Virus record (IMG/VR): IMGVR_UViG_3300042291_001013
From: a virus
Taxonomy: Duplodnaviria; Caudoviricetes
Reading direction: 5' to 3' (one strand)
DNA: 64,000 bases
The notes beneath the pieces are model-generated. The model did not search any database. It saw only the letters and a list, made by a program, of their open reading frames with translations, and was not told the origin of the DNA. How positions within the stretch are numbered: position 1 is the stretch's first letter; the number at the start of each line of letters is the position of its first letter. This document shows, piece after piece, positions 31,222 to 47,195 of the stretch. A program made the translations under genes and the position numbers.

Positions 31222-31543
31222 ATTTTTAAACATCTGGCTGGACGTTCCCAAGCCCCAGCCAGTGTTTTATCGACTGTATCACGACAGCACTGGTGTGCCG
31301 TTATTCTACAGCATGGAAGATAGCCCCGGTACATACATTGAAATAGATCAAGCGACCTTTGCTCGCAATCAATTCAACGTGCGAGTACGGGACAGCAAGC
31401 TGGTAGAAATCACCTGGAAGACTTCTGCTAAGTTAGTGCCCAGTGATACAGGAACACCGTGTCATCCACAGGATGTCACAATAGTTGTTGGTGAAGACAA
31501 CCCACATCAAAAATGGAGCAAGAGAATATATGAAGGAAATTGA
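31208..31543 (+). CDS. Hypothetical protein (111 aa)
   Basis: ORF overlapping both neighbours in the operon; no recognised motif. Confidence 0.7.
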   Translation: MTQDEFLNIWLDVPKPQPVFYRLYHDSTGVPLFYSMEDSPGTYIEIDQATFARNQFNVRVRDSKLVEITWKTSAKLVPSDTGTPCHPQDVTIVVGEDNPHQKWSKRIYEGN

Positions 31544-32456: not shown

Positions 32457-33377
32457 ATGAAAAAATTAATAGCAACACTTTTGACTGTATTGGCATTGCA
32501 GGCCCATGCACAAGTAATCACACTCAAATCTCCATACAATGCACAGCATGCTGGACATTCGGCCATATACAAGATATTTGAGCATGCTAACTCTAGCCAA
32601 AAGAAATACACGTTCATGCTAGAACTCAAACCTGGAGGACAAGGTACTATTGCGTTGAAAGACATGGACAGGACTCCAGCCACAGCACTAGGGCTGATTG
32701 CCGCGCCCTATGTACAAAATACCATCGACGGTGTATTAAACGAAGCAGACTACGTGCCTGTTACCAGTTTGGGAGATGCTTGTTGGTTCATTATTAGCAA
32801 CGTGGGAGATGAAAAAGAAGGGGTCAAGAGTTTGCTATCTGCTTCTCCTGACTTGGTGGGTAGTGTTGTGGGCATTGGTTCAGCAACACACTTGGCAATG
32901 ATAGAAATCAGCGACAAATTAAACAGACCTTACAGATACGTTAATTTTAAAAGTGCGGCTGAGGGCAATGTGTTGTTAGCTGGAAACAATGGTGTCAACT
33001 TTGGTATTGCACCCAATGCAGAGTTTTTGAACTTAAAAAATATTAATCCAAGCATGCAACGTCTTGCCATGCATTGCGAACGTAGACATCCACAAGCACC
33101 GCATGTGGCCACCACACGTCAACAAGGTATTGATGCACCGTATGTGTTTAATACTGTGTTGGCCAGTGTAAACATGCCTGTAGAACGCCGACAAGAAATT
33201 AAAACTATACTAGATAACGCTATACTAGCAATTGGGCAAGATCAAATCTTGGCAATTAGTGACTTTAATCCGCCAGTGTTTAGGCAACTCAATGTGGAAG
33301 AATACCACAAACAGAAAATGGTTGCAATGAAACGTGCATTGACCAAACATCGTTCAAAAATTGAGGCTGCAAAATGA
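32457..33377 (+). CDS. TctC/Bug-family tripartite tricarboxylate transporter substrate-binding protein
   Basis: Signal peptide (MKKLIATLLTVLALQAHA), ELKPGGQGTIA, YVPVTSLG, VGIGSATHL, RHPQAPHVATTRQQG, all consistent with the Bug fold. Confidence 0.7.
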   Translation: MKKLIATLLTVLALQAHAQVITLKSPYNAQHAGHSAIYKIFEHANSSQKKYTFMLELKPGGQGTIALKDMDRTPATALGLIAAPYVQNTIDGVLNEADYVPVTSLGDACWFIISNVGDEKEGVKSLLSASPDLVGSVVGIGSATHLAMIEISDKLNRPYRYVNFKSAAEGNVLLAGNNGVNFGIAPNAEFLNLKNINPSMQRLAMHCERRHPQAPHVATTRQQGIDAPYVFNTVLASVNMPVERRQEIKTILDNAILAIGQDQILAISDFNPPVFRQLNVEEYHKQKMVAMKRALTKHRSKIEAAK

Positions 33378-34459
33378 AAAGAGTAGTACTGGCTGTTCCT
33401 GACCCTTGGAATTATTTTAATCAATTCCCTGACTACAGCCTAGCCATTATTAATCCAGACAGTGATCCTAGCCGCAAACAATATCTATTAGATAATTTAG
33501 ACTGGAGTTTGTTGGTCACGTGTGATAGCGCACAACATCGCGACGGTGGCGATTACGGCAACGAACAAATGGTAATGTACACTTCGGGCACCACTGGAGA
33601 TTCAAAGTTTTTTAGTTATTCTACTACTCAAGTACAGCATGTTGTTGATAACATAATTGCCAGCTACGAATTAACAGCCAATGATCGATTTTTAAGTGTC
33701 ATGCCCTTGTGGCACGGTCACGGACATATCTTAAACTATGTTGTTGCAAAAGTTGGAATGCAGGTACATCATGCTCGGCTGTCCGACTTGAAAAAACCAA
33801 TAGAATTTAGCCCAACTTGGGTGTCTGCAATTCCTGACATACTTAGAGTAATGTCACGCACCCAAAAATTCCCCAACTTGCGTTTTGCTAGATCAGCTAG
33901 TGTTGCATTGCCTGATCAAGTTTTTAATGATTTAAAAACATCTTTTAACACCCCGGTGATTGAATCTTTTGGCATGACTGAAGCATGTAGTCATTGCTTT
34001 ACCAATCCCTTATATGGTGAACAACGTATAGGAACCATTGGACTTCCTGACGGGATCAACGCAGACATACGCAACGGCAGCCTATGGCTGCGCGGCCCAC
34101 AATGTCACACAGCAGATTGGTTTGACACTGAAGACCTGGCCGAGCAAGATTCTGCAGGATATTACAAAATACTAGGGCGTAGGTTAGACCGATTAACGTT
34201 ACATGGGATCAAACTGGATCCATTAAGCATAGAAAATCAATTGTATAATCTCATACCGCAGTTGACCGAAGTTGCGGTGTTTGGAGAAAACAAAACAATG
34301 TGTGTGTATGTTGGCGATGTGGCCCCCAGTCGGGTGCGACAATCATTAAATGATATTTCTGCATATTGCAATCCTAAATTTCTCAAACAAGTTGAAAGCA
34401 TACCTAAAAACACCGCAGGAAAAATATCACGTTCACTGCTAAAGGAAATTTACAATTGA
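33374..34459 (+). CDS. Adenylate-forming enzyme (ANL/acyl-CoA synthetase family), compact
   Basis: VMYTSGTTGDSK (A3 P-loop), MPLWHGHG, ESFGMTEA, WFDTEDL, ILGRRLD, PKNTAGKISR (A10 Lys). Confidence 0.85.
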   Translation: MKRVVLAVPDPWNYFNQFPDYSLAIINPDSDPSRKQYLLDNLDWSLLVTCDSAQHRDGGDYGNEQMVMYTSGTTGDSKFFSYSTTQVQHVVDNIIASYELTANDRFLSVMPLWHGHGHILNYVVAKVGMQVHHARLSDLKKPIEFSPTWVSAIPDILRVMSRTQKFPNLRFARSASVALPDQVFNDLKTSFNTPVIESFGMTEACSHCFTNPLYGEQRIGTIGLPDGINADIRNGSLWLRGPQCHTADWFDTEDLAEQDSAGYYKILGRRLDRLTLHGIKLDPLSIENQLYNLIPQLTEVAVFGENKTMCVYVGDVAPSRVRQSLNDISAYCNPKFLKQVESIPKNTAGKISRSLLKEIYN

Positions 34460-35166
34460 AAATTCTAGTAAACGGACCCAGTGTGTCACGAGGCCCAGGG
34501 TCGTGGCCTTACTTGTTGCAAGAGCACTACACTGCTGACCTTGTTAATTTGAGTCAAGCAGGTGCTGGAAATACCTACATTCACGAAACTACTGTAGCTG
34601 AACTTGCACAACGATCTTATGACCTAGTGGCAATCATGTGGGCAGATCAACAGCGCCTGGACATCAAAGTAAAAAACATTGATTATTTTCAAGATACCAT
34701 CTACACCAGTAAATTCCAAAAAACCATGAACGACTGGCCAGAGAAGATTGTGGAGCCTGTTAACGACCAAGACTATGTACAAGACAACTGGGTGTTTGGT
34801 TGCGGGTATATCAATACCAAGGATCCTTGTTTGGTAGAACTTTTTGACTCTTATTACCAGCACACTGATGTTGACTCTCGCTACTTTAGCAGTATCATCA
34901 AAATGATCAGTCTGCAGGGTGTGCTTAAAAATCTTGGAATAAAGTATGTGTTCTGTGGTGTACGTACTTTGCCATTGTTGGATCGCTACAAACATCTATA
35001 TCAGTTACTGGATTGGAATTGCATAATCAACGACTTTACTCCCCATCACGTGGCCTACCGGGACAACTGCTGGGAACCTGATCAAATCCACCCTGGTCCA
35101 GCCGCACACCGAGAATTTGCCGACCACATGATTGCTCAATTTCAACAAAGACATACAGTTACATAA
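34456..35166 (+). CDS. SGNH/GDSL-fold hydrolase or acyltransferase-like protein
   Basis: ILVNGPSVS (block I Ser), VNLSQAGAGN (block II), DQIHPGPAAH (DxxH); TTG start. Confidence 0.6.
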   Translation: MKILVNGPSVSRGPGSWPYLLQEHYTADLVNLSQAGAGNTYIHETTVAELAQRSYDLVAIMWADQQRLDIKVKNIDYFQDTIYTSKFQKTMNDWPEKIVEPVNDQDYVQDNWVFGCGYINTKDPCLVELFDSYYQHTDVDSRYFSSIIKMISLQGVLKNLGIKYVFCGVRTLPLLDRYKHLYQLLDWNCIINDFTPHHVAYRDNCWEPDQIHPGPAAHREFADHMIAQFQQRHTVT

Positions 35167-36152
35167 TGATTAATATTCCGCACATTGATCTTAAGATTTG
35201 GAATCCTGAATTCAAAACAATTGAAATTGTTTCAGAGTTACAACAGCACAGCAGTGTGTCTATCAGCATTGACGGCGAAGGATCTGATTGTGAAACGCTG
35301 GGCTTGTATAAACTATTGGATGCAGTATGCAGTAACTTAGGTTACACCCCCGACGCCATAAGCATACACACTTGCAATCAATTAGAACATCATCCTTGCT
35401 ATAAAATTATCAAGCATCCACCGTTGTATATTCCCAGCGGGCAACAGTTTGCAACTCAGCACACGCTACCAGGGAAGCGTTGGGACACATTGAAACATTT
35501 TGGTATGTTTATTGGGCGTAGCAGTTGGCAACGACTGTGGATGGCCAGTCACACATGGAGTAACTACAGCGATAAAACTGTTATGACGTATCACTATGAC
35601 AGTAGTGTTGACTATCATCGCACACATTTAAGTTTTGATGAACTAGCACATCAAATAGGATTGCCCAAGGCAGTTGATACAGCTGGTAAGTTTATGCAAC
35701 AATTACCTATCAAAAACGAAGCTGTTGACAGCTATCCTATTCTAACTCCGGCACACTTTGCCATATCCAAACTGTACCCTGATTTTTTTGTGGAAATAGT
35801 ATGTGAAACTTTTTTAAGCGGTAACAGCTTCTACCCCACAGAAAAAACCTGGAGACCTTTTATATGTCGTACACCGTTTTTGACTCTGGGCCCACGTGGC
35901 TTTTTGGCAAACTTACATACGCTGGGGTTTAAAACATTCTCTCAGTGGTGGGACGAAAGCTACGATCAAGACGCAGACCTAGACAACGGACGGGTAGCTA
36001 TCAACTGCATACAGCAAACACAACAACGCTTGAGCAAATTGAGCACAGTAGAACTAGAAGGTATGTATATTGACATGAAAGATACTTTAGATTATAACTA
36101 TCAACACTTCATGCAGTTAAAAGAAAAGGACTTTGCAAAAATATGGCCATGA
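35166..36152 (+). CDS. TEK-family putative glycosyltransferase (GT10-like), paralog 1
   Basis: EIVCETFLSGNSFYPTEKTWRPFICRTPFLTLG...GFKTFSQWWDESYD. Confidence 0.55.
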   Translation: MINIPHIDLKIWNPEFKTIEIVSELQQHSSVSISIDGEGSDCETLGLYKLLDAVCSNLGYTPDAISIHTCNQLEHHPCYKIIKHPPLYIPSGQQFATQHTLPGKRWDTLKHFGMFIGRSSWQRLWMASHTWSNYSDKTVMTYHYDSSVDYHRTHLSFDELAHQIGLPKAVDTAGKFMQQLPIKNEAVDSYPILTPAHFAISKLYPDFFVEIVCETFLSGNSFYPTEKTWRPFICRTPFLTLGPRGFLANLHTLGFKTFSQWWDESYDQDADLDNGRVAINCIQQTQQRLSKLSTVELEGMYIDMKDTLDYNYQHFMQLKEKDFAKIWP

Positions 36153-37552
36153 ACAAAGGCGACGAAACAGTAGACAACAAGAGCCAGTTCCTAAACTCTG
36201 CTGAACAAATGGCAGAGAATCTAGGACCTGCACTGTGCTTGGCCAAGTGGAAGCAAGTAAGTCTGCACTTGCCCACAGGACTCAACAACTCATGCTACCA
36301 TCCTCCCTTGCACTCAATACCCATTGATGCTATTCAACGCAATCCCAGTGCCCTACACAATACTGAACACAAGAAAGCTCAACGACAGCAAATGCTGGCA
36401 GGCAACCGCCCTGCAGAATGCTCCTACTGTTGGAACATGGAAGATCAAGGCAAACTCAGCGACAGACACTATAGATCTGGGGAGCCCTGGGCCGCAGTGG
36501 ACTTTGAAAAGATTAAAAACTCCACTGGAGACGAAGATGATGTTATACCCAGTTATGTTGAGGTTAATTTCAACAACGCTTGTAACCTCAAGTGCAGTTA
36601 TTGCAGTCCCCAGTTTAGCTCTAGCTGGTCAGACGAAGCTAACCGTCTTGGTGCTTTCCCTACTTCTGCACCACATAATGCTCCTGAACACTTTACAGGG
36701 GCTAGACGTGTTATTCCCGCCAGGGAACACAATCCCTATGTTGAAGCATTTTGGCAGTGGTGGCCCACACTATACCCTGAGCTTAAACACTTTAGAATGA
36801 CTGGCGGGGAACCCTTGCTAGATCGAAACACCTACAGAGTATTTGACTATGTACTGGAACATCCCAAGCCTGATCTGCATCTAAACGTTACATCAAATTT
36901 TTCAGTGGACGAAAAGTCATGGCAACGGTACTTGGGCTATGTAAAACGCCTGTGCCAAGAGGGCAACCTAGAGCATTTTATGCAGTACGTGAGCCTGGAT
37001 GCCTGGGGCACACAAGCCGAGTACATACGCAATGGTTTGAATTTTGATCTGCTGTGGGACAGAGTAAATCAATTCTTGACCGAGGTACCCAGCTACAATT
37101 CATTAACGTTTATTGTTACCATGAACAATCTTTCAGTGTGCAGTCTTGAAAATCTTTTTGCCGGCATTTTGGGCCTGCGACAGACCTACTCAAAGACCTA
37201 TCAACGTGTGTGGTTTGATACGCCTGTGCTACGTGAGCCTGTGTGGCAAAGTTTACAAATCTTACCCGAAAGCTATGCTGAAAGACTGGAACACTTGTGG
37301 GCCTGGATGATACGCCAAAGCGAACAACCCAGCGACCCATTTCACGGGTTTAAAGATTATGAACTGGCTAGGTTGGACAGAGACATTGCTTGGATGCGAG
37401 CAGGGCAGGAAAAAGATCATGCCGTTGCCAAAGCAGACTTTTATAGATTCTTTAGTGAACACGATCGTCGACGCGGAACTGATTTTCTAGCAACTTTTCC
37501 TGAAATGCGAGCCTGGTGGGAGGAGTGTGCATATCATGCTAGGCAAACGTAA
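36143..37552 (+). CDS. Radical SAM enzyme with N-terminal twitch-like Fe-S domain, paralog 1
   Basis: CLAKW...SCYHP...ECSYCW, then NNACNLKCSYC (CxxxCxxC) and MTGGEPLL. Confidence 0.85.
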   Translation: MAMNKGDETVDNKSQFLNSAEQMAENLGPALCLAKWKQVSLHLPTGLNNSCYHPPLHSIPIDAIQRNPSALHNTEHKKAQRQQMLAGNRPAECSYCWNMEDQGKLSDRHYRSGEPWAAVDFEKIKNSTGDEDDVIPSYVEVNFNNACNLKCSYCSPQFSSSWSDEANRLGAFPTSAPHNAPEHFTGARRVIPAREHNPYVEAFWQWWPTLYPELKHFRMTGGEPLLDRNTYRVFDYVLEHPKPDLHLNVTSNFSVDEKSWQRYLGYVKRLCQEGNLEHFMQYVSLDAWGTQAEYIRNGLNFDLLWDRVNQFLTEVPSYNSLTFIVTMNNLSVCSLENLFAGILGLRQTYSKTYQRVWFDTPVLREPVWQSLQILPESYAERLEHLWAWMIRQSEQPSDPFHGFKDYELARLDRDIAWMRAGQEKDHAVAKADFYRFFSEHDRRRGTDFLATFPEMRAWWEECAYHARQT

Positions 37553-38639
37553 GATCATTGTGGATGAATGGGCCGAAGTATGGGACTTGCTAAAGCCCCA
37601 TGCTGATGCTAGTTTTTGGCAGTGGCCCGACACACCTGATTTAGATGCAGTGTACGTTGTGGGCCGTGTGGTGCTACGTGATCGCTGGGCTGACATCACA
37701 GCCTGGGCAGACCAGCATCCAGGACAGGTTGTTTTTTCAAACCCTGCTGAAGGTTCTGAAACCATACTGCTACAGCTTCGACGACTGCGTATTACCGAGC
37801 ACATAATGGATCGGCGCATGGGATTGTTAACGTCGGGCAACTTAGGCATAGATTTGCCTTACTGCCAAACTGACTGTTACTTTTCAAACATTGTTGAATA
37901 CTTAGAGAATTTACGAGCACATGAAAGTGTGCCGCAGATGCGTCACAAAACACACAAGCCCTATAGCTTTCTCATGCTGAATGGTCGATTAAGACCGCAC
38001 CGCAAGGCCATGATTGATGCCTTGCGTGAGCGTGATTTACTGGATCAAGCACTATGGACCAATCTAAATGCCCAGGTTGAAATGGCCTTTACCAGCCAGC
38101 TGGTGACAGCGCAGACCGAGCCCATTAGACTGTTACCGCCCGAATACGAAATTGAACGTGCTCGACCCAACATGAGCACAGCACCTGAACATGTGTTTGC
38201 CAAGCATCATTTGTTTGGCGACACCTGGGGCGATGCCATTGTGAATCCTGATGCGTACATTGACACTTACTTTAGTGTGGTAACCGAAACCATTTATGAC
38301 TATCCGCACACGTTTAGAACTGAAAAGATCTGGAAGCCCATGATAATGGAGCACCCATTTGTTGTGGCAGCCAATGCTGGCTATTATCGTGACCTGCATC
38401 AGGCCGGATTTCAAACGTTCCACAAGTTAATTGACGAGAGTTTTGACAGTATAGCGGACCCACAGCAACGATTGGATCGCATAGTTGACACTGTGGCGGA
38501 TATCTGCTATAATGGTGCTAGTAGTTTCATGGCAGCAGCCGCAGATGTTTGTAAATACAATTATCTACATCTTCGCGAACACAACCGCCGCGAACGACAA
38601 CAGCTTCCTGAGCAATTGGCAAAATACATCAATGAATGA
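37536..38639 (+). CDS. TEK-family putative glycosyltransferase, paralog 2
   Basis: SVVTETIYDYPHTFRTEKIWKPMIMEHPFVV...GFQTFHKLIDESFD; FLMLNGRLRPHR. Start ATG 37536 (track GTG 37527). Confidence 0.55.
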   Translation: MLGKRKIIVDEWAEVWDLLKPHADASFWQWPDTPDLDAVYVVGRVVLRDRWADITAWADQHPGQVVFSNPAEGSETILLQLRRLRITEHIMDRRMGLLTSGNLGIDLPYCQTDCYFSNIVEYLENLRAHESVPQMRHKTHKPYSFLMLNGRLRPHRKAMIDALRERDLLDQALWTNLNAQVEMAFTSQLVTAQTEPIRLLPPEYEIERARPNMSTAPEHVFAKHHLFGDTWGDAIVNPDAYIDTYFSVVTETIYDYPHTFRTEKIWKPMIMEHPFVVAANAGYYRDLHQAGFQTFHKLIDESFDSIADPQQRLDRIVDTVADICYNGASSFMAAAADVCKYNYLHLREHNRRERQQLPEQLAKYINE

Positions 38640-39978
38640 TTTGGAATTTAGACAGCAGGTGCTAGACCCTATTAGTTCTAGTTTTTGTGCGGCCAAGTGG
38701 TACAATGCGACCATTTGGTTGGGGTCAGGCATGACAACAAGTTGTCACCATCCCCCGGCCCATTTGGTGGACAAAGATAAAGTCCGTGCCAACCCTAGGC
38801 TCCTGCACAATACTGATCAAAAGAAAGCAGATCGTGCGCAAATGCTTGCTGGAGAGCGCCCAGCAGGTTGCGAGTACTGCTGGAAAATTGAAGACATGGG
38901 ACGCGATGCTGTGAGCGACCGTGTGTACAAAAGCAAAATATACTCCATCAAGGCACTAGATGACGCTAGAAATACACCCGCCAATAACGACGTTAACCTA
39001 CGCACCCTGGAGATTGCTTTTGATCGTACTTGCCAGTTTGCTTGTAGCTATTGCAACCCTGCATTTAGCACAACATGGGTTAATGATATTCGACGTAACG
39101 GAGCCTATACCAACCTTGTTAGTGATGGGCGCAACCATTTCACTCACACTCATGACAGTAGTCAGAAGTACAAAATTACAGAAGCTAATCCATACATTGA
39201 TTCTTTTTTTGCATGGTGGGACTCGGATCTGCATCACACACTGCAAGAGCTCAGAATCACAGGCGGAGAGCCCCTTATGTCAGCCCACACCTGGAGACTC
39301 ATTGACTGGTTTAAAGAGCATAAGGGCAAGAGTACTACACGCTTGGCTATCAATAGTAACCTGGGAACTGATGTCGATATTGACCGTTTACTCTCGAGTA
39401 CTCAGGGCATGCAAATAGACCTGTACACTTCAAACGAAGCACTAGGATCGCAGGCCGAATACATACGCGATGGCTTGGTTTGGGCGGACTGGGTCAACAA
39501 TGTCAATCGCTTGTTAGACAGCAAACAGTTCCGTGGTATACATGTGATGTGTACCATTAATGCCTTGTGCTTGGACAGTTTAGATAGTCTATTAGATTGC
39601 ATACTAAATTGGAAAACCAAATACGGACGTGAAGCCATTAGTTTCACATTGAACATCTTGCGTTTCCCCAGCTTTCAAAGCCCGCTGATACTGCCCACAG
39701 CATCGAAAACACACTATAAAACAGTGTTGGAAACTTGGTTGTTACAAAACAGTCACAGTGAATTCTTGCACGAACACGAGATCAATCATTTACAAAGATT
39801 AATTGATTACTTGGATGTGGTAAAAACTCCGCACTCAGACACATTTGAAATGCCCAAGCTACTGAATGACTTTAAACAGTTCTTCTCACAGTATGATCAA
39901 CGTCGCGGCAAAGACTTTGGCACTGCGTTTCCCAATTTAAAAGACTGGTATGACTCAATACAAATACAACAGCACTGA
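38632..39978 (+). CDS. Radical SAM enzyme with N-terminal twitch-like domain, paralog 2
   Basis: Probable start is the ATG at 38632, overlapping the upstream stop (track start 38485). CAAKW...TSCHHP...GCEYCW; DRTCQFACSYC; ITGGEPLM. Confidence 0.85.
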   Translation: MNDLEFRQQVLDPISSSFCAAKWYNATIWLGSGMTTSCHHPPAHLVDKDKVRANPRLLHNTDQKKADRAQMLAGERPAGCEYCWKIEDMGRDAVSDRVYKSKIYSIKALDDARNTPANNDVNLRTLEIAFDRTCQFACSYCNPAFSTTWVNDIRRNGAYTNLVSDGRNHFTHTHDSSQKYKITEANPYIDSFFAWWDSDLHHTLQELRITGGEPLMSAHTWRLIDWFKEHKGKSTTRLAINSNLGTDVDIDRLLSSTQGMQIDLYTSNEALGSQAEYIRDGLVWADWVNNVNRLLDSKQFRGIHVMCTINALCLDSLDSLLDCILNWKTKYGREAISFTLNILRFPSFQSPLILPTASKTHYKTVLETWLLQNSHSEFLHEHEINHLQRLIDYLDVVKTPHSDTFEMPKLLNDFKQFFSQYDQRRGKDFGTAFPNLKDWYDSIQIQQH

Positions 39979-41212
39979 TCTAGTTCGTGCCACAGAGCTA
40001 ACTGACCGTGAAGAATTCTTGTTAAAAGAATCCAAAACCTTCTGCATGTATCCTTGGATTCATTTGCATGCCTATCCCACCGGCGAAGCATATCCTTGTT
40101 GTCATGCTGAAATGAAGCCAGGCATTGTGGGCAACTGTAGAACCAACACACTAGCGGAAATATGGCAGGACCAGCCCATGCAAAAGCTACGTGCAGACAT
40201 GTTGAGCGAAACTCCCCATGCCGCCTGCACACGCTGTTATGAACAAGAAGAGTCGGGCTTTTTTAGTGGCCGTAAGAGTGCAAACAAGCATCATGGACAT
40301 CACATAAAGAAGCTGGCGGAAAATCCTTTTGAAATGACCTATTGGGATATTCGTTTCAGTAACCTATGCAACCTAAAGTGTCGTAGCTGTGGACATATCT
40401 TTAGCTCACAATGGTATCAGGATCAAGCCAAGCTGGCAGGGCCAGAATGGAAAGCTCGCAACACAGTTCTTAACTATGCTGGCCGTACAGAAACAGACAT
40501 ATGGTCGCAACTGGAGCCCCATTTAGACTATGTGGAACAGATATACTTTGCAGGTGGTGAGCCATTATTAATGGAAGAACACTACAGAATCTTGGAAGAA
40601 CTTGTTAGACGCGGCCGCTTTGATGTGCGTTTAATATACAACACCAACTTCACACACACTGATTTAAAGGGCCGTAGTGTATTTGATTACTGGAAGCAGT
40701 TTCGATCAGTAGCAGTGGGTGCTAGCCTAGACGATTCAGGCACCAGAGGCGAATACATACGCAAAGGCACTGACTGGGCTCAAGTAGAACAGAACCGCAG
40801 AGACATGTTGCGTGTGTGTCCCGAAGTGGACTTCTATATCAGCCCTACCCTGAGCATCTTGAATGCTCTGCACTTGCCGGACTTTCATCGTGACTGGGTG
40901 GAAAAGGGCTTGATTCGCGCTCAGGACTTGAATGTAAATATCCTACAAGACCCTGCATACTATAGAATAGACATAGCGCCTGCCGAATACAAAGGCGTGT
41001 TGCTGGCCCGATACCGCGAACATATTGAATGGCTTCGCAATCAAGACCCCTTGCAACGAGCCACAGTGGGTTTTGAAAGCGCCATTACTTTTATGACAGC
41101 CACAGACAATACTCATTTAATAGACTCTTTCTGGCGTAAAACACATGAGCTTGATGCCATAAGAAATGAATCAATATTGGATACAATTCCAGAATTACGA
41201 GCACTAAAATGA
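39950..41212 (+). CDS. Radical SAM enzyme with N-terminal twitch-like domain, paralog 3
   Basis: CMYPW...GEAYPCC...ACTRCY; SNLCNLKCRSC; FAGGEPLL. Confidence 0.88.
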   Translation: MTQYKYNSTDLVRATELTDREEFLLKESKTFCMYPWIHLHAYPTGEAYPCCHAEMKPGIVGNCRTNTLAEIWQDQPMQKLRADMLSETPHAACTRCYEQEESGFFSGRKSANKHHGHHIKKLAENPFEMTYWDIRFSNLCNLKCRSCGHIFSSQWYQDQAKLAGPEWKARNTVLNYAGRTETDIWSQLEPHLDYVEQIYFAGGEPLLMEEHYRILEELVRRGRFDVRLIYNTNFTHTDLKGRSVFDYWKQFRSVAVGASLDDSGTRGEYIRKGTDWAQVEQNRRDMLRVCPEVDFYISPTLSILNALHLPDFHRDWVEKGLIRAQDLNVNILQDPAYYRIDIAPAEYKGVLLARYREHIEWLRNQDPLQRATVGFESAITFMTATDNTHLIDSFWRKTHELDAIRNESILDTIPELRALK

Positions 41213-42423
41213 ATATACCACATGACAAATTCTGTGTACTGCCCTGGGTGAGCCTAGAAGCCTCACCCATAGGTACTGTGCGCCCTTGCTGTTTGGCCGA
41301 TGATGAAATTGTGGACAATGCAGGCCGCAAGTTTGAATTGAGCACTGCTGACTTTGCAGACATACAAAACAGTGATCACATGCGTGGGTTGCGAGAAGAA
41401 TTTTTGGCAGGCAACAAGCCACAAACATGTAGAAAATGCTGGAATGAAGAACGTGGTGGTCGTACTTCAAAACGCATGCACACCTTGGACAGACTCAAGC
41501 ACAGTATTGCACACACTGAATGGACAGCAGATGCCAAGCCGCTAATGTTCTTGGATCTCAAGCTGGGCAACATCTGCAATTTAAAATGCCGTATCTGCGG
41601 TTCATGGTCGAGTAGCCAGTTTGCCGCAGAAGAAATTGCACAGTTGCCCCCTGAAGAAAAGAAAAAGTCACACGCTTATACTATGCTACGAGCCGGGGCT
41701 TGGCCCAGAGAGAACACTCAGTTCTGGCAGCAGATTGATTCAGTTGTAAATGACATACGCTATATAGAGTTTACTGGTGGTGAGCCGTTCATGATTGAAG
41801 AACACTTTGCAATGTTGCAGGGCATAGTGGATCGTGGTATTGCGCATCAAGTGGAAATACACTACAACACAAATGGCACACAGTATCCTGAGGCAGCAGA
41901 GGCAATATGGCGGCATTTTAAAACAGTAGAAATAGCATTCAGCTTGGACGACGTGGGTGAGCGCTTTGAATATCAACGCACAAACGCTGTGTGGGCAGAT
42001 GTGTGTGCCAACCTAGATCGTTTCCGTGACTTAAAAGAAATCCACCCCAATATTGAACTGCAAGTATGCACCACAGTGAATGTGTTTAACGTGCGTTACC
42101 TTGGGGACATTGCAGCCTGGTTAGAACGCAATCGCAAAAGTTTTACGTTTGTGTACTGGAATATGATGCACGATGCTTGGTACTTCAGTATCGCTTGCTT
42201 GCCTGACAGGGTCAAACGGGCCATTACTGAATATCTCAATGGTGTTGACACCATTTACAGATCAGAATTTGATCGCATAAGAGACTTTATGAATTCAGGT
42301 GCGTCAACTGATGGGTTCATGACTAGAATGAAAATAGCAGATCTAGACCGCAAACGCAATCAGGATCTACAGGCTGTAGCGCCAGAGTTAGCTGAGCTGA
42401 TTGAGTACAATAAAAATGCCTAA
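41209..42423 (+). CDS. Radical SAM enzyme with N-terminal twitch-like domain, paralog 4
   Basis: CVLPW...GTVRPCC...TCRKCW; GNICNLKCRIC; FTGGEPFM. Confidence 0.88.
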   Translation: MNIPHDKFCVLPWVSLEASPIGTVRPCCLADDEIVDNAGRKFELSTADFADIQNSDHMRGLREEFLAGNKPQTCRKCWNEERGGRTSKRMHTLDRLKHSIAHTEWTADAKPLMFLDLKLGNICNLKCRICGSWSSSQFAAEEIAQLPPEEKKKSHAYTMLRAGAWPRENTQFWQQIDSVVNDIRYIEFTGGEPFMIEEHFAMLQGIVDRGIAHQVEIHYNTNGTQYPEAAEAIWRHFKTVEIAFSLDDVGERFEYQRTNAVWADVCANLDRFRDLKEIHPNIELQVCTTVNVFNVRYLGDIAAWLERNRKSFTFVYWNMMHDAWYFSIACLPDRVKRAITEYLNGVDTIYRSEFDRIRDFMNSGASTDGFMTRMKIADLDRKRNQDLQAVAPELAELIEYNKNA

Positions 42424-43294
42424 GTTAGTTTATGAATCTCCAGGATCGTTAAATTCACAATGGATTCAGCCCATTGTGGAACAATACTTTACGGTAGAGC
42501 CATACCGGGCTGATCAATATTATGATCGTCACACATTGCTAGTGCAAAATCAACCTGCCATAACACCTGCTGGACAACGCATTCAAGATCAGGGCGGCAC
42601 AATAGTATTTGATAATTTATGGGAACAGCCTTGTTCATGGACCGGTGGGTATAGACTGGAACACGCCAATTGGTTCTGGTACAACGAAAGTCTGCACTAT
42701 CAACATCTAGGTTACGATCAGTATGAACCTGTTCGCAGTTATGACTATTTGGCACTGATTCCCATGCGTAAAATACACCCACACAGAGACTGGTTGTTGC
42801 GGGCCCTTGAGCCCTGGCTAGATCAATGCGTTTGGAGTTACTTGGAACGCGGACGCAGTCTGCCCAATGATACAGACACTTCTGATCTAAAAGGACAACG
42901 TTACATGAATCCCGAGTGGTACAACCGCACTTGTTTTAGCATAGTGGCAGAAAGCACTGTGAGTGCCAGGGAAATTTTTATCACTGAAAAGACATTCAAA
43001 CCCATGGCATTTCAACATCCGTTTGTGGTGTGGGCGCAGGCAGGTGTGCTGAAAAGACTACAAGATCTAGGATTTGAAACGTTTAAAAACTTATTTGATC
43101 AAGCATATGATTCTGAGCCAAATGATCGCCGGCGCTTGGCTCTGCTGGTTGATGCAGTAAATGATTTCAAGCCAATAGAGTACAGCAAAGAAACTGTGCA
43201 AAAATTACAGCACAATCACAATCATTTCTTCAGCAACACCGTTGCCCAGCGTGTGCAAAAAGAAATAGTAGAACCATTAACAGCACTGATATGA
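42416..43294 (+). CDS. TEK-family putative glycosyltransferase, paralog 3
   Basis: SIVAESTVSAREIFITEKTFKPMAFQHPFVV...GFETFKNLFDQAYD. Start ATG 42416 (track 42401). Confidence 0.55.
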   Translation: MPKLVYESPGSLNSQWIQPIVEQYFTVEPYRADQYYDRHTLLVQNQPAITPAGQRIQDQGGTIVFDNLWEQPCSWTGGYRLEHANWFWYNESLHYQHLGYDQYEPVRSYDYLALIPMRKIHPHRDWLLRALEPWLDQCVWSYLERGRSLPNDTDTSDLKGQRYMNPEWYNRTCFSIVAESTVSAREIFITEKTFKPMAFQHPFVVWAQAGVLKRLQDLGFETFKNLFDQAYDSEPNDRRRLALLVDAVNDFKPIEYSKETVQKLQHNHNHFFSNTVAQRVQKEIVEPLTALI

Positions 43295-44583
43295 ACAAGC
43301 CAGAAAATCTTTGTCTTGCTCCTTGGGTACACACATATCTAAGCCCGCAAACCGAACGGCGTATGTGCTGTGCCAGTCGTGAACCTGCACAGAACTTTGA
43401 ACAGTATATAGACACAGCCGCGGGAACCGGTCGATATATACCCGTGACTCTTGAGGCGCACTGGAACTCGGAGCACATGCGAAGTGTGCGCCGTAGAATG
43501 ATGAACGGGGAGACTCTCCCAGAATGCGAAGTATGCAATGATAAACTGCTTAACACATCCGTATATCGCGATTATTTTTCACAATTATTCGGAGCAAGAA
43601 CTGCTGAAGTATGGGATAACACTCTCCCAGATGGATCGACTAGTATGCGCCCTGTGTCATGGGATTATAGGTTCAGCAACTTGTGTAATTTTAAGTGCAG
43701 AACCTGTGGAGACATGTTATCAAGTGCATGGGAGTCAGAACAAAAGACCTGGAATATGGTTGATGTTTCAAACAGTAAAAACAATTGGATGGTGCCCGAG
43801 ATTCGCAAAGAAATATCTTTATTTCAAGACACGCAAATTGAAGCCGAATTTAATGATGCTGTGGAGCGTCATTCAGTAGAAGAGATCTACTGGGTAGGCG
43901 GGGAACCGCTGATGTATGAACAGCATTGGCGTTACATGAAAAGAATTATAGAATTAGGGGACGGGGACAAATTATATGCAAGGTACAATACTAATCTTAG
44001 TCGTGTGGATTATCGTGGTGTTAATCTTTTTCGGGATATTCTTGTTCATTGCCGTGACTGGCAAATCTGCGCCAGCCTTGACGGAACAGGAGAAATTGGA
44101 GAATACATACGCACAGGCCTGGACTATGGGATATTTTTAGAAAATTTCAAGCAAGGAGTACAATACGCAACAAACCGCAGACAAATGCGTCTTGATTTTA
44201 CTCTTACCCTGCCAGGCATGTTTGAAATACACAACATGGAACAATTGGCCGAAAGCATGGGTGTAGAGTTGTTGGCCAAGGTTATATTCTCATTTACCTC
44301 GGACATTGCAATGAGTCCATTGTGTTTGCCCCGTGAGTTGTTAATGCCCTGGATTGATGAACTGTACTCCGGTGCTTGCACACAGGTCATTCGAGACCTG
44401 CTACAACAGTTGGCCACAAGACCCACATTTGCAGAACAGTGGCCTGATCAATGGCAACAAGGCCTGCGCCAAGGCAAAGCTCGTGTGTTAAAACTGGAAC
44501 AAATAAGAACACAATCAGTCACAATGACTGACATTCTGGGCTCCCGTCCAGAAGTACTTAAATGGTGGATGCAAATTGCTTGA
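43291..44583 (+). CDS. Radical SAM enzyme with N-terminal twitch-like domain, paralog 5
   Basis: CLAPW...RRMCC...ECEVC; SNLCNFKCRTC; WVGGEPLM. Confidence 0.85.
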   Translation: MNKPENLCLAPWVHTYLSPQTERRMCCASREPAQNFEQYIDTAAGTGRYIPVTLEAHWNSEHMRSVRRRMMNGETLPECEVCNDKLLNTSVYRDYFSQLFGARTAEVWDNTLPDGSTSMRPVSWDYRFSNLCNFKCRTCGDMLSSAWESEQKTWNMVDVSNSKNNWMVPEIRKEISLFQDTQIEAEFNDAVERHSVEEIYWVGGEPLMYEQHWRYMKRIIELGDGDKLYARYNTNLSRVDYRGVNLFRDILVHCRDWQICASLDGTGEIGEYIRTGLDYGIFLENFKQGVQYATNRRQMRLDFTLTLPGMFEIHNMEQLAESMGVELLAKVIFSFTSDIAMSPLCLPRELLMPWIDELYSGACTQVIRDLLQQLATRPTFAEQWPDQWQQGLRQGKARVLKLEQIRTQSVTMTDILGSRPEVLKWWMQIA

Positions 44584-45619
44584 TCAAATCAAAATGACCC
44601 TACGTGGGAACCACAGTGAACTGGACGTTTACATAGACGTTGCTGACAACAGTCTCAGCCGCAAATGGCTGGTTGCGCTTAACAATCTGATAGCTCAAGA
44701 CTGTCATCTTGAAAAGAACTACTGCTGGATGGGCTGGACTGAAAGTGCAAGAAACGCTGAGTATCTATGCACACAGATCAATCGCAGTATACACGCAATC
44801 AATGCCAGCGACCTGGGCTACAGGATTGTAAACTGGTTCTCACCCGCCAATGTAATACAACCGGACCTTGATGTTGATCACGAGCGTATGAATCAGTTGC
44901 ACAGGTATTTTGAAGACCTACAGGGCTGGAGTGGCGGTATCAGCACGTACTATCAGCAGGCCACACCCGAAACACGCTGGCACATACGGCAGTTAAACTT
45001 GCTGTGCCATGAACTAGAAAATCTTGTGCTGAGCATGCGTAAAGTTGTACAAGCACCTGAATGGCGCCGCCCCAGCCAGCTGATGTGCTGGCTCAATGCA
45101 CCGCGTTTTGCGCTTGAAGAGTCTGATTACGAGTTGTTTGGTATTGATACAATCAACAGAAAGCTGGGCGGAGTCTACGTGGGTGTAAATAAAGCAGTGG
45201 GCAAGCACCACTGGGAGGTATTCAATGATGAAGGAAGAGACAGCAGGATTGCCGAATTGGTTACAACCGGACTTCGAGTCCAGACTGAAGCCGCTGGTGA
45301 CTTTGATATTGAATGGGCCCGTGATCCCGGCGCTTACCATTGGCAACAGCAAAAGCTCACGGAGTTCCGAGATTGGCTCCGAGCAAATGATTTTGATCCT
45401 GAGGAAAAAGCTCTCACTATTGGCCATCCGCAGGTTGCGCAAGTGGATCTTGAGCGAAGTTTTGGCACCCAGGATTATCAAGCAATCTGGCGCCAGCTAG
45501 CTGATCACATGGATGTGTATAAAATTCAAACTGCTGATGCCAAAGCTACATATGAGTATCGCTGGAGTGATCCAGACTATGCAGATCAACAAATAAGGAA
45601 ACTATCATGCACTGGTTAA
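44576..45619 (+). CDS. Hypothetical protein (347 aa), Trp-rich, possible His/Glu metal site
   Basis: ORF coupled to both neighbours; MNQLHRYFE and LNLLCHELE motifs. Confidence 0.7.
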   Translation: MLDQIKMTLRGNHSELDVYIDVADNSLSRKWLVALNNLIAQDCHLEKNYCWMGWTESARNAEYLCTQINRSIHAINASDLGYRIVNWFSPANVIQPDLDVDHERMNQLHRYFEDLQGWSGGISTYYQQATPETRWHIRQLNLLCHELENLVLSMRKVVQAPEWRRPSQLMCWLNAPRFALEESDYELFGIDTINRKLGGVYVGVNKAVGKHHWEVFNDEGRDSRIAELVTTGLRVQTEAAGDFDIEWARDPGAYHWQQQKLTEFRDWLRANDFDPEEKALTIGHPQVAQVDLERSFGTQDYQAIWRQLADHMDVYKIQTADAKATYEYRWSDPDYADQQIRKLSCTG

Positions 45620-45708
45620 GAAAAATTTGGGACAGAATCACACTAGAGATTCGCTATCGTAAAAAACTAAAAGAACTGCGCAAAAGAGATCCGTTTATCT
45701 ACAAATGA
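45607..45708 (+). CDS. Small basic 33-aa protein not in the ORF track
   Basis: Hand translation: MHWLRKIWDRITLEIRYRKKLKELRKRDPFIYK*. It fills the gap and has an ATGA overlap with the carbamoyltransferase start. Confidence 0.7.
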   Translation: MHWLRKIWDRITLEIRYRKKLKELRKRDPFIYK

Positions 45709-47195
45709 AACACATACTTGGAGTCAGTGCTGGCTTTCATGATGCGGCCCTGACCTTAATCAACGATCATGGTGACATTGAGTTTGCTGGACACAGCGAA
45801 CGCTACAGCAAACTCAAAAACGATGAAAATTTATCATTGGGGTTACTGCACGAAGTAACCAAATACAATATACAGCACATAGCCTACTACGAAAGACCCT
45901 GGGCCAAACAGCTACGACAACTGTACGCAGGTCAAGGGATTGAGTGGAACAAACTGACTGCAAAGCAGATACTAACCCAGCAGATTGGTCAAGAGTTTGG
46001 TGCATTTCCCAGTGACAGAATCAGCACACACAATCATCATTTATCGCATGCGGCGGCTGGATTTCAGACCAGCACATTTGATCGTGCCACTGTGGTGGTA
46101 ATTGACGCTATAGGTGAATGGGACACAATATCAATCTGGGGAGCAGAATATGATTCAAAAGGTCAAGCAGTTTATAAGCGATTGTGGAAACAAACTTACC
46201 CACATTCCATCGGACTCTTTTATAGTGCAATCACTAGCCGCGTTGGCCTACGCCCACTAGACGAAGAATACATTACCATGGGCATGGCAGCCTGGGGCAA
46301 ACCCGCCTGGTACGAAAGCATGAGCATGGCCGTGGTCAAAGACTTAAAGTCAGTGACCATGCACAACAACCATCACACTGGTTTCCCAGACACGTTCCTT
46401 GAAGCCGCCACCAATGAAGACATTGCTTGTGCCGCGCAAATAGTTGCTGAAGATCTAATTGGGCAGGTAATGCAACGTGCTCGTGACTTCAAGTGGAGCA
46501 GTAACCTTGTGTACATGGGCGGTGTGGCGCTGAACTGTTTGGCCAATAGAAACCTGGGCAAATGGTTTGATAGTATTTGGATTATGCCTTGTCCCGGCGA
46601 TGCTGGATCAAGTCTTGGTGCCGCGGCTCTGGTGCATGGCGGACAGATCAACTGGGTCAATGCTTATCTTGGACACAATATACCTGGTAAGTATCCGGTA
46701 CAAGCATTGTTAGACGAATTGGTAACCAATCGCATTGCTGGAGTGGCATCAGGTAGAGCTGAGTTTGGGCCACGTGCTCTGGGCAATAGAAGCTTGCTGG
46801 CCGACCCCAGAGGCAGTAGAATCAAGGATCAAGTAAATGGAATTAAACGCAGACAACAATTCAGACCCTTTGCGCCTGTTATTCTGGAGGAGCTGGTTGA
46901 CATGTACTTTGATATGCCTAGTGGTTTCAGTAACAGTAGGTACATGCAGTCAATCGCTCGTTGCAGGCATCCTGACTTATTTCCTGCTATCATTCACGTT
47001 GACGGCACTAGTCGTGTACAAACAGTACCGCGTGATGGGTCAGGCATACGAAAACTGCTAGAAGCATGGTATGACTTGACTGGGTGCCCAATGCTGTTGA
47101 ACACTAGTTTGAACATACGTGGTGAGCCCATGGTTAATGATCGTGCAGATGCTGACCGCTTTGAACAATTATACGGGGTGCGAGTGTTTTCATGA
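45705..47195 (+). CDS. Carbamoyltransferase, NodU/CmcH/TobZ family
   Basis: HDAA, ERYSK, HHLSHAA, DAIGE, GGVALNC, GDAG, EFGPRALGNRSLLADP, FRPFAP, HVDGTSRVQTV, LNTSLN. Confidence 0.93.
   Translation: MKHILGVSAGFHDAALTLINDHGDIEFAGHSERYSKLKNDENLSLGLLHEVTKYNIQHIAYYERPWAKQLRQLYAGQGIEWNKLTAKQILTQQIGQEFGAFPSDRISTHNHHLSHAAAGFQTSTFDRATVVVIDAIGEWDTISIWGAEYDSKGQAVYKRLWKQTYPHSIGLFYSAITSRVGLRPLDEEYITMGMAAWGKPAWYESMSMAVVKDLKSVTMHNNHHTGFPDTFLEAATNEDIACAAQIVAEDLIGQVMQRARDFKWSSNLVYMGGVALNCLANRNLGKWFDSIWIMPCPGDAGSSLGAAALVHGGQINWVNAYLGHNIPGKYPVQALLDELVTNRIAGVASGRAEFGPRALGNRSLLADPRGSRIKDQVNGIKRRQQFRPFAPVILEELVDMYFDMPSGFSNSRYMQSIARCRHPDLFPAIIHVDGTSRVQTVPRDGSGIRKLLEAWYDLTGCPMLLNTSLNIRGEPMVNDRADADRFEQLYGVRVFS

Follow-up and report, generated by a model that had tools for sequence, protein, structure and literature searches.

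Five N-terminal-twitch radical SAM enzymes form the fixed core of a putative glycan-building island in a jumbo phage

What would a phage do with five radical SAM enzymes encoded side by side and interspersed with transferase-like genes? The question is raised by a 9.4-kb stretch in an uncultured lake-water jumbo myophage of ~360 kb, from which we analysed a window of 64,000 nucleotides. A sequence-only reading had described the gene order TEK-rSAM-TEK-rSAM-rSAM-rSAM-TEK-rSAM at positions 35166-44583, and this order was confirmed, with all array genes on the plus strand and their ends overlapping or abutting (Table 1). A ~27-kb island of soluble enzymes (~29.6-56.2 kb) surrounds this stretch, which is its invariant core. 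A hairpin (8-bp stem, 5 of its pairs being GC, followed by a T tail) and a promoter agreeing with the consensus at 10/12 positions plus the TG probably separate the enzyme operon from the tail genes. The aminotransferase/epimerase pair makes up the right end of the island and is followed by ThyX at 56547-57233.

Table 1. Features of the enzyme island and its left border
Feature	Position	Strand	Basis
Terminator-like hairpin overlapping sigma-70-like promoter TTTACT-17-TGnTATAAT	29293..29338	+	Consensus matches only
Two paralogs, 276 and 261 aa, possibly GT-A-like	29649..31221	+	Paralogy by blastp
322-aa GT2-like protein	31485..32453	+	36% identity, E 2e-55, to L110:11379-12929
Optional insert: signal-peptide protein, short AMP-binding ligase, 236-aa protein	32457..35166	+	AMP-binding E 3e-22
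TEK1, GT-B-like	35166..36152	+	Blastp paralogy, invariant TEK residues
rSAM1, Tyr after Cys2	36143..37552	+	NF033640, 323 bits
TEK2, GT-B-like, modelled	37527..38639	+	AF2 model and structural matches
rSAM2, His after Cys2	38632..39978	+	NF033640, 289 bits
rSAM3, CC motif, modelled	39950..41212	+	NF033640, 392 bits
rSAM4, CC motif	41209..42423	+	NF033640, 339 bits
TEK3, GT-B-like	42401..43294	+	Blastp paralogy, invariant TEK residues
rSAM5, CC motif	43291..44583	+	NF033640, 276 bits
Orphan 347-aa protein	44576..45619	+	Conserved position after rSAM5
33-aa basic microprotein, invariant C-terminus ELRKRDPFIYK	45607..45708	+	Conservation in 56 loci
NodU/CmcH-type carbamoyltransferase	45705..47195	+	Pfam Carbam_trans_N E 1e-31, Carbam_trans_C E 4e-46
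TEK4 and TEK5, GT-B-like (48785-49966, 49926-51068)	48785..51068	-	Blastp paralogy
739-aa protein, GT2-like modules	51067..53286	+	Blastp to 31485-32453 and to GT2-like proteins of L110, L096, L106
DegT-type sugar aminotransferase and NDP-sugar epimerase/dehydratase	53258..55491	-	Pfam E 1e-55, 4e-41

The five paralogs had been taken for radical SAM enzymes with an N-terminal twitch domain, belonging to a family of no assigned function. Such a family is indeed catalogued, as NCBIfam NF033640 (N_Twi_rSAM), and 5/5 proteins match its HMM over their full length above the NCBI curated cutoff of 170 bits, with E-values from 5e-82 to 4e-117; a literature search found no published work on the family. 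At their N-termini, rSAM3 and rSAM4 also match Pfam SPASM, and rSAM5 does so weakly. The start of rSAM2 is uncertain (~38632), its ORF being open from 38485. Membership in the radical SAM superfamily is evident from the CxxxCxxC and the GGEP SAM-binding motif, both in invariant alignment columns, and from a partial TIM barrel in the model and fold matches. In the five-way alignment, C32, W36, C51, C93, C96, C147/C151/C154 and GGEP are invariant, and the seven cysteines are 100% conserved among 63-82 orthologs per paralog (83 sequences for rSAM1). The auxiliary-cluster domain, C...C...CxxC, precedes CxxxCxxC in all five, as it does in NF033640. The canonical SPASM/twitch arrangement of BtrN, anSME and SkfB, with this domain C-terminal to the barrel, was considered and rejected, the domain being N-terminal in every one of the five; the five would function in the manner of twitch enzymes, with an architecture permuted relative to the canonical ones. 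The motifs put forward by the sequence-only reading hold overall, except that rSAM5 breaks CxxC(W/Y) with CEVCN. Its division of the paralogs into two subtypes with different auxiliary-cluster ligands did not survive the alignment: the same four cysteines are found in all five, and only the residue after Cys2 varies, being fixed as Y in rSAM1, H in rSAM2 and C in rSAM3-rSAM5. In the phylogeny, rSAM1 and rSAM2 form a clade (100/100), rSAM3-rSAM5 are not recovered as one clade, and rSAM5 is the most divergent. The paralog nearest to the family consensus is rSAM3. A recent expansion is rejected (AU test p = 0.008), and the five enzymes are ancient subfamilies.

A profile built from 56 family members matches, at its positions 9-81, the twitch domain of BtrN (residues 164-237; E 8e-6). 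BtrN (2-deoxy-scyllo-inosamine dehydrogenase, PDB 4M7S/4M7T) shares with the phage enzymes this homologous twitch with one four-Cys auxiliary cluster, C...C...CxxC, but carries it after the barrel, whereas theirs lies before it; unlike BtrN, they are 400-470 aa long with an extra C-terminal helical domain. The AF2 model of rSAM3 (pLDDT 92.7) yielded structural matches to BlsE, anSME, CteB, SkfB, viperin and MoaA at Z 11.8-13.2. The best core matches were to BlsE, the cytosylglucuronate decarboxylase (Z 13.2), and anSME, the anaerobic sulfatase-maturating enzyme (Z 13.0; Foldseek E 4e-6). Both are only 16-19% identical to the phage proteins and have their own auxiliary domains at the C-terminus; BlsE acts on a nucleoside sugar and anSME on a protein. 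The closest solved structures thus include enzymes acting on sugars or nucleotides (BlsE, viperin, MoaA, BtrN) as well as maturases of peptides or proteins (anSME, CteB, SkfB, SuiB), so that the fold does not decide the substrate. With these four maturases and ChlB among the closest solved structures, the five enzymes could be protein or peptide maturases, forming thioether or C-C links or epimerised residues or carrying out formylglycine-type oxidation, while the transferases act separately. The maturases would act on a small peptide or on phage proteins, for example the giant tail or fibre proteins encoded next to the array. We consider this rather unlikely: no RRE/leader-binding domain or peptide family was detected, nor any small ORF rich in Cys, Ser or Thr. 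A His-Xaa-Ser (HXS) multi-rSAM system was considered separately and rejected, as no run of at least three HxS, SHx or xSH repeats occurs in any frame of the window or the fetched loci.

The TEK proteins had been called transferases on the basis of their sequence, and modelling supports a transferase-like fold. Blastp within the window revealed five TEK paralogs, two beyond the three in the array, with the invariant pattern ...V.E(T)...TEK..(K)P...F...G...D...R...N. They have no match in Pfam, NCBIfam or PHROG; the Pfam search, at E 0.01, covered TEK1-3 and ten further members of the family. A sequence search of PDB chains at E 10 was also negative. The AF2 model of TEK2 (pLDDT 96.1) has a GT-B fold of two facing Rossmann-like domains, and its top 50 VIA structural matches in the PDB are all GT-B glycosyltransferases (Z 9.6-13.0); Foldseek matches include SenB, WaaG and FucT. 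The same two-Rossmann fold is found in the GT10 alpha-1,3-fucosyltransferases (H. pylori FucT, FUT9), T4 BGT/AGT, SenB and WaaG (Z 10-13). An invariant Arg and the (T)EK motif begin a helix of the C-terminal domain in TEK2, at a place which we take to correspond to that where FucT binds its nucleotide diphosphate. Membership in GT10 is not supported: Pfam Glyco_transf_10 gave no match, and FucT, FUT9 and FUT11 (Z 10.4-11.4) lie within ~2 Z of the top hit, tied with many other GT-B families. The TEK family is very large, with 13,345 representatives at 50% identity and 3113 close TEK2 homologs in metagenomes. A likely fusion is seen in BFVD, where an uncultured-phage protein named for the UDP-glucose/GDP-mannose dehydrogenase N-terminal domain has a TEK-like fold (E 3e-12); other BFVD matches include Mimivirus L138 and giant-virus glycosyltransferases. 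In locus L096, moreover, a UDP-glucose dehydrogenase gene abuts a TEK gene. Both observations would fit TEK proteins that bind an NDP-sugar and transfer its sugar.

Glycosyltransferases of this fold also act on phage DNA, and the T4 beta- and alpha-glucosyltransferases and the glycosyltransferase of phage HY126 rank high among the GT-B matches (Z 11.2-12.8). Viperin, MoaA and QueE appear among the matches of the radical SAM enzymes. The island could accordingly hypermodify phage DNA or its nucleotide precursors. In this reading, the radical SAM substrate would be a base or nucleotide, and DNA glycosylation by the GT-B proteins would protect against host restriction. ThyX flanks the island, and the host-type promoter at the start of the operon fits early expression, which would be more in keeping with a DNA- or host-directed role than with decoration of the virion. 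Many unrelated GT-B families, however, score within 1 Z of the DNA glucosyltransferases, and no hydroxymethylase, ParB-like or DNA-binding protein was seen in the island. Known DNA glycans fall far below what at least eight transferase-like proteins and five radical SAM enzymes would make, and we regard this reading as quite improbable.

In ~80 related jumbo-phage contigs, the five radical SAM genes and the 347-aa orphan are found in one order, all intact, at 45-90% identity. The orphan directly follows rSAM5 in every clade locus reaching that far; it has no match in family, atlas or profile searches, and none of its 4807 homolog clusters contains a Pfam domain. In contrast, each of TEK1, TEK2 and TEK3 is facultative: TEK2 is missing from ~14 diverged loci, TEK3 is present in about a third, and in ~13 loci there is no TEK inside the array at all. 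One complete 329-kb genome has its TEK genes >120 kb away from the array. This runs against the proposal that interleaved transferase/radical SAM pairs act step by step, since the rSAM order is fixed while the TEKs come and go. The failure of the clade to keep TEK adjacency also weighs against a sugar-directed, virion-decorating role.

Upstream of the array in nearly all clade loci is the 276/261-aa pair, homologs of which precede rSAM genes in the same order in locus L110; a language-model comparison links them to viral clusters, in one of which 11% of the members carry Mannosyl_trans3, and weakly suggests that these proteins are possibly GT-A-like. Every clade locus encodes the 322-aa protein, whose gene immediately precedes the array or, where present, the optional inserts. 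Its L110 counterpart matches Pfam Glycos_transf_2, and it resembles the C-terminal module of the 739-aa protein by blastp. The insert is complete in 7 of the ~80 loci and partial in a few more; its 236-aa protein was named SGNH in the sequence-only reading. Across 56 loci, the downstream microprotein is conserved as a protein while its codons vary synonymously; it is nearly always located directly upstream of the carbamoyltransferase, its ORF overlapping the preceding stop and the next start, which suggests translational coupling. Such a strongly conserved product of the same operon could be viewed as a maturase substrate, but this microprotein, the only conserved small ORF, tracks the carbamoyltransferase and not the radical SAM genes. 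The array always lies behind a structural block of tail genes encoding proteins of 5135, 201, 596 and 318 aa (Ser and Thr make up 29% of the 318-aa protein), and this position directly behind the 5135-aa protein would also suit protein modification.

No TM-like segment was found in any island protein, and export and lipid-carrier machinery is absent from the island. Together with the DegT, SDR and carbamoyltransferase genes, this might point to a pseudo-oligosaccharide of the aminoglycoside- or nucleoside-antibiotic type, made as a free small molecule and not bound to a macromolecule as a glycan; the matched sugar-directed relatives BtrN and BlsE act in aminoglycoside or nucleoside-antibiotic pathways, as do the sugar-directed NeoN and AprD4. 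We nonetheless judge this very unlikely. The island has no inositol or 2-deoxy-scyllo-inosose synthase, resistance gene or exporter, and its supposed amidinotransferase (47758-48798) matches neither Pfam nor NCBIfam. In addition, the number of transferase-like proteins (up to ten) points to a long glycan, and a diffusible antibiotic would be of no evident use to a lytic jumbo phage.

The sequence-only reading had staked its proposal on co-localisation of these enzymes with glycosyltransferase-like genes in other genomes, and such co-localisation was found, with TEK in many viral lineages and with GT2 flanks in bacteria and MAGs. Outside the clade, an N-twitch gene lies within 10 kb in 44/73 viral TEK loci, a raw fraction over sampled loci that are not phylogenetically independent; counted as lineage groups, this amounts to 11/23 at 50% identity and 20/37 at 70%. 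GT2 genes are found within 2.5 kb of N-twitch genes in ~10/34 bacterial or MAG loci, with further radical SAM genes adjoining. The family's presence beside GT2 genes on megabase chromosomal bacterial contigs also speaks against a role in phage DNA hypermodification. In the cultured Vibrio phage K566, four N-twitch paralogs are interleaved with non-TEK proteins. Like the GT2 neighbours, this points to independent recruitment of other transferases. Across lineages, the neighbours are mostly glycosyltransferases, other radical SAM genes and sugar-nucleotide enzymes, not peptidases or transporters, which weighs against the maturase reading. A marine T4-like environmental viral genome carries 12 radical SAM genes (Nishimura et al. 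2017, PMC5332604), which that paper treats only as Fe-S-related auxiliary genes, with no family, transferase link or functional proposal; the 46.9-kb marine contig L096/L122, with 7 N-twitch and 5 other radical SAM genes, looks like a locus of this type.

On balance, we lean slightly towards an island that builds an unusual glycan by oxygen-independent radical chemistry, probably on virion or fibre proteins. Its content of DegT, NDP-sugar epimerase/dehydratase, carbamoyltransferase and GT2-like proteins supports the sugar reading. The analysis establishes which families the proteins belong to, their folds, conservation and synteny and the co-occurrence of their genes; that the substrate is a sugar, what kind of chemistry is done and on which target are inferred. 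Each radical SAM enzyme is predicted to bind a SAM-cleaving [4Fe-4S] cluster (CxxxCxxC, GGEP) and one auxiliary [4Fe-4S] cluster, held by four cysteines in the BtrN-like twitch before the barrel. We infer that each would catalyze a distinct oxygen-independent radical step at unactivated sugar carbons of nucleotide-sugars or of an oligosaccharide under construction. Candidate reactions, of the kinds carried out by BtrN, NeoN, AprD4 and BlsE, are oxidation, epimerisation, dehydration and decarboxylation. Supply and decoration of the sugars would fall to the DegT/SDR pair and the carbamoyltransferase, and their transfer to the GT-B TEK and GT-A-like proteins. Because no membrane protein, flippase or lipid-carrier enzyme is encoded in the island, a cytoplasmic origin of the glycan is most likely, with a phage macromolecule, probably the virion or fibre proteins, as its acceptor. 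The five radical SAM enzymes and the 347-aa orphan would then be the fixed engine, and the TEKs interchangeable accessories varying the product between phages.

Mycobacteriophages, chloroviruses and mimiviruses decorate virion proteins in the cytoplasm with clusters of virus-encoded soluble glycosyltransferases and sugar-nucleotide enzymes. We know of none among these that uses radical SAM enzymes. A reference on virion glycosylation is Freeman et al. 2023, as cited in PMC12619734. What is new here is the presence of five ancient subfamilies in one fixed array, their phage setting and their partnership with transferases; if the proposed function is correct, sugar decoration by radical chemistry would be previously undescribed for phages.

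Each of the five radical SAM enzymes in the array (R1-R5) matches the NCBIfam family NF033640, "N_Twi_rSAM", from end to end, with scores of 276-392 bits (cutoff 170) and E-values from 5e-82 to 4e-117. In a profile built from 56 members of the family, the match to BtrN's C-terminal twitch domain (residues 164-237) falls at the N-terminus, at positions 9-81 (E 8e-6), and the Pfam SPASM model is placed at the N-terminus in R3 and R4. In an alignment of R1-R5, residues C32, W36, C51, C93 and C96 are invariant and are followed by C147/C151/C154 and GGEP, so that the N-terminal position of both the BtrN-like segment and the invariant cysteines establishes the inverted twitch domain, proposed in the sequence-only reading, as real. 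That reading had also mentioned an N-terminal-twitch family defined without a known function, which corresponds to NF033640: it exists as a named family, and we found no literature on it or on the term "N-terminal twitch". The order of the eight genes (TEK-rSAM-TEK-rSAM-rSAM-rSAM-TEK-rSAM, TEK denoting the GT-B-like proteins interleaved with the enzymes) was reproduced, with all genes co-directional and their ends overlapping, and the motifs hold except in R5, which has CEVCN in place of CxxC(W/Y). The proposed division into two subtypes with different auxiliary-cluster ligands is not borne out, as the ligands are identical in all five enzymes and the difference comes down to one neighbouring residue. 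The four N-terminal and three SAM-cluster cysteines are 100% conserved in the ortholog sets, each of 63-82 sequences at 45-90% identity, and the position after the second cysteine is fixed within each paralog, R1 having Tyr there, R2 His and R3-R5 Cys.

The predicted model of R3 (pLDDT 92.7) finds its nearest structures in BlsE (Z 13.2), anSME (13.0), CteB (12.7), SkfB (12.4), viperin (12.2) and MoaA (11.8), which places its core in the SPASM/twitch branch; the modelled fold appears compatible with sugar, nucleotide or peptide substrates alike. Maturation of a protein or peptide by the five enzymes, which such a fold would allow, is in our estimate rather unlikely. An HXS-type system is rejected, since no HxS repeats were found in the window or the fetched loci.

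The five paralogs did not arise by recent duplication within the phage. In a tree of 56 members of the N-twitch family, R1 and R2 are sisters (support 100/100), R3 falls inside a well-supported (98/96) group whose 11 sequences carry Bacteroidota, Bdellovibrio and Elusimicrobia labels, and R4 and R5 form long unplaced branches; a topology keeping R1-R5 together fails the AU test (delta lnL 63.2, p 0.0077). Members of other multi-gene arrays (L096, L105, L099 and L110, all fetched loci) likewise pair across genomes and not within them. The arrays are sets of old subfamilies travelling together.

The interleaved TEK proteins match nothing in Pfam, NCBIfam or PHROGs, their profile yields no match to PDB chains at E 10, and none of ten other family members searched has a Pfam domain. 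The AlphaFold2 model of TEK2, built from 81 sequences (pLDDT 96.1, pTM 0.93), has a GT-B fold: all 50 of its 50 best VIA-align matches are GT-B glycosyltransferases (Z 9.6-13.0), among them T4 beta- and alpha-glucosyltransferase, SenB and WaaG, and Foldseek agrees. From the modelled fold and the lack of matches in the three family collections, the TEK proteins would thus constitute a new GT-B family. Membership in GT10 was rejected for want of a match in the same collections: GT10 fucosyltransferases score Z 10.4-11.4 against TEK2, and the likeness is confined to the fold and the (T)EK motif. In TEK2 numbering, Arg159, Glu266 and Lys267 are invariant. Hypermodification of DNA or nucleotides, for which the R3 model leaves room and which would fit a nucleotide substrate, we regard as decidedly improbable. 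The nearest entries to TEK2 in the AlphaFold DB are uncharacterised clusters, followed by GT1, GT10, GT47 and CgeB-like entries. Clustered at 50% identity, the family numbers 13,345 representatives, of which 10,118 reach E 1e-10 or better, and BFVD shows it to be common among uncultured tailed phages; one TEK-like match there (E 3e-12) is to a 788-aa protein whose name refers to the UDP-glucose/GDP-mannose dehydrogenase N-terminal domain. No match to TEK2 was obtained by tblastn in 50,697 phage records. Many TEK-family proteins of 680-1020 aa (representatives P0125, P0127, P0131-P0137 and others) consist of two tandem TEK modules. Divergent representatives are encoded on short contigs, at least one of which (L120) shows the gene order of the window's clade. 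Three TEK genes do lie in the stretch pointed out from the sequence, and blastp brings the total in the window to five, with two more on the minus strand at 48785-51068.

Within the clade, we compared 80 IMG/VR loci carrying R1 orthologs at 58-83% identity and one 476-kb contig, with ORFs called by a simple longest-ORF rule and assigned to window genes by best blastp match. As in the other samples, the fetched loci are the best-ranked matches and not a random sample, and the HMMs were purpose-built. Upstream, the conserved order is that of the 5135-, 201-, 596- and 318-aa proteins, then a pair of 276- and 261-aa proteins and a 322-aa GT2-like protein; in the array it is R1, [TEK2], R2, R3, R4, [TEK3], R5, a 347-aa orphan and a carbamoyltransferase. 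The order R1-R5 is invariant, with the orphan next after R5 wherever a locus reaches that far. TEK1 is found in about one quarter and TEK3 in about one third of the loci, and TEK2 is absent from about 14 of the more diverged ones; in the complete 329-kb genome of L079, the TEK homologs lie more than 120 kb away from the array. With TEK genes facultative and, in that genome, so distant, the strict pairing of transferase and radical enzyme inferred from the interleaving is unsupported. Some loci carry extra radical SAM copies, and the array takes insertions with the R1-R5 order unchanged. Examples with insertions are L003, L010, L016, L028, L030, L040, L043 and L053, where one or two N-twitch genes with a best match to R1 or R3 have been added, and some clade members have an additional epimerase/dehydratase gene between R4 and R5. 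The block 47758-51068, comprising TEK4, TEK5 and the gene at 47758-48798, is missing from several members, in which a 739-aa GT2-like protein directly follows the carbamoyltransferase or the orphan.

Among 37 loci from species-representative genomes chosen by their N-twitch genes, two of which belong to the window's clade, the only non-clade locus with a TEK gene was L096, which has seven N-twitch genes, five other radical SAM genes, one TEK and a UDP-glucose dehydrogenase. A census of 155 genes within 2.5 kb of N-twitch genes yielded 27 further radical SAM proteins, 12-15 GT2 glycosyltransferases in about 10 loci, and a few NDP-sugar enzymes, GDSL proteins and B12-radical SAM enzymes. One radical SAM family of about 380 aa accounts for 26 neighbours in 14 loci, and its scanned member matches NF033640 in the core only (47 bits), without the N-terminal twitch domain. 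It stands beside N-twitch genes in L096 (e.g., L096:4799-5932), L105, L097-L100, L103 and others, and radical SAM genes reach a density of 12 or more in 21 kb at some loci. With the distant L096 copy of TEK as lead, 80 viral loci were recovered, 73 of them outside the clade. An N-twitch gene, called at a score of at least 100 bits together with the N-terminal Cys pattern, lies within 10 kb of TEK in 44 of these 73 (41/60 for loci of at least 12 kb), bearing out the co-localisation expected in viral metagenomes; by lineage group, the pair occurs in 11 of 23 at 50% identity and in 20 of 37 at 70%. Since the radical SAM pattern is rare (290 matching stretches in 2.9 million viral contigs), the enrichment, as judged from this rarity, would be very large. 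The TEK-led loci often also have relatives of the 322- and 739-aa GT2-like proteins, epimerase/dehydratase, the 276/261-aa pair and the carbamoyltransferase.

In L110, homologs of the window's 318-, 276-, 261- and 322-aa proteins are kept in order and are followed by two N-twitch genes, a gene order that makes 28331-32453 part of the cassette. L096 was binned in a Rickettsiales MAG and L110 in a Bdellovibrionales MAG, and both have phage-like DNA, L110 with a fibre-like protein followed by the cassette; several such "bacterial" MAG contigs are probably phage. The TEK protein of L096 is identical to that of L122, an IMG/VR viral contig equal in length to the L096 contig. In the cultured Vibrio phage K566, four N-twitch paralogs are interspersed with other proteins; two of the latter (311 and 361 aa) were compared with TEK and show no detectable relation to it. 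Vibrio phages K567, VS1, VS2 and QD01 have related arrays.

The island also encodes the carbamoyltransferase and up to ten transferase-like proteins. A simple hydropathy scan of all its proteins found no membrane-spanning segments, and the island showed no sign of a flippase, polymerase or lipid-carrier transferase, so the product is probably built up on a soluble acceptor within the cytoplasm. A candidate for the glycan acceptor is the 318-aa protein, a homolog of which heads the cassette in L110. That the product is instead a free aminoglycoside-like metabolite seems to us very unlikely. The 347-aa orphan has no match in Pfam, PHROGs, NCBIfam or the atlas and shows no relation to the TEK and radical SAM profiles. 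A 33-aa microprotein, with no family match in NCBIfam, ends in 11 residues (ELRKRDPFIYK) that are invariant in 56 loci despite synonymous codon variation, with, for example, five Leu and four Pro codons. Outside the clade it recurs in five phage loci, where its N-terminal half differs; it stands directly before the carbamoyltransferase in four of them and three genes upstream in the fifth. As it travels with the carbamoyltransferase, we judge it unlikely to be a radical SAM substrate. An amidinotransferase label for the gene at 47758-48798 is unsupported by its family searches. A perfect match to the sigma-70 promoter consensus lies within the array, in a region where promoter-like sequences are about as frequent as chance predicts (34 found vs 33 expected).

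Features of the enzyme island and its borders (window coordinates)
Feature	Position	Strand	Remarks
318-aa protein	28331-29287	+	29% Ser+Thr, fibre-like composition; final gene before terminator/promoter
Putative terminator/promoter pair	29293-29338		left end of island
Sigma-70 consensus	38485-38513	+	perfect 12/12, TTGACA-17-TATAAT, extended -10 TG; inside TEK2 3' end, ~120 nt before rSAM2 (R2) start
33-aa microprotein	45607-45708	+	strongly basic; overlaps 347-aa orphan and carbamoyltransferase genes
Gene without family match	47758-48798	-	no Pfam/NCBIfam match at E 0.001
DegT aminotransferase and NDP-sugar epimerase/dehydratase	53258-55491		right end of island; ThyX next

We put at about an even chance the reading in which R1-R5 each carry out a distinct radical tailoring of glycan sugars, with the TEK and GT2-like proteins assembling the glycan and a phage macromolecule as its probable acceptor. 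The window comes from an uncultured jumbo myophage: its baseplate hub (3016-4533) shares 34% identity with the hub of PA5oct-like phages, a 5135-aa ORF lies upstream of the island, and the window's 347-aa orphan is recorded on a contig of 361 kb. No near-identical DNA was found in cultured phages, and none of the RNA runs searched contains the stretch. Such phages are common: DNA nearly identical to the window's is present in 24 metagenome runs from lake water (four of them possible sources, and at least 20 others), and its genes have thousands of variants. Two different members of the clade, L083 and L084 (81-84% identity), were binned in a Haliscomenobacter MAG, which hints at a host in the Saprospiraceae (Bacteroidota). 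A 2025 study (PMC12619734) presented jumbo "moraphages" from freshwater that have hosts in the Bacteroidota and four glycosyltransferase groups in their core. Nishimura et al. 2017 (PMC5332604) reported, without further analysis, 12 radical SAM genes in one marine T4-like genome. We found no literature joining "jumbo phage", "radical SAM" and "glycosyltransferase".

For NF033640, a named family without a known reaction, there is now a genomic setting that can be reproduced, together with defined subfamilies and with cultured phages that carry its members, and TEK is a large GT-B family (more than 13,000 representatives) missing from Pfam, NCBIfam and PHROGs. More tentatively, and with appreciable doubt, N-twitch arrays with soluble glycosyltransferases may amount to a modular system that is widespread, chiefly among phages, and that would decorate virion proteins, through oxygen-independent radical chemistry, with sugars of unusual kinds (epimerised, keto, deoxy or C-C-linked). 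The five fixed subfamilies would then represent a series of reactions that is conserved, and interchangeable TEK or GT2 transferases would diversify the coat between lineages. If this is true, it would provide the first function for the orphan family NF033640 and a new class of chemistry in the decoration of phage particles. A radical-tailored glycan on particles or DNA, if that is the product, would be new phage biochemistry, and a fixed set of radical enzymes with swappable transferases offers a testable model for the diversification of viral glycan pathways.
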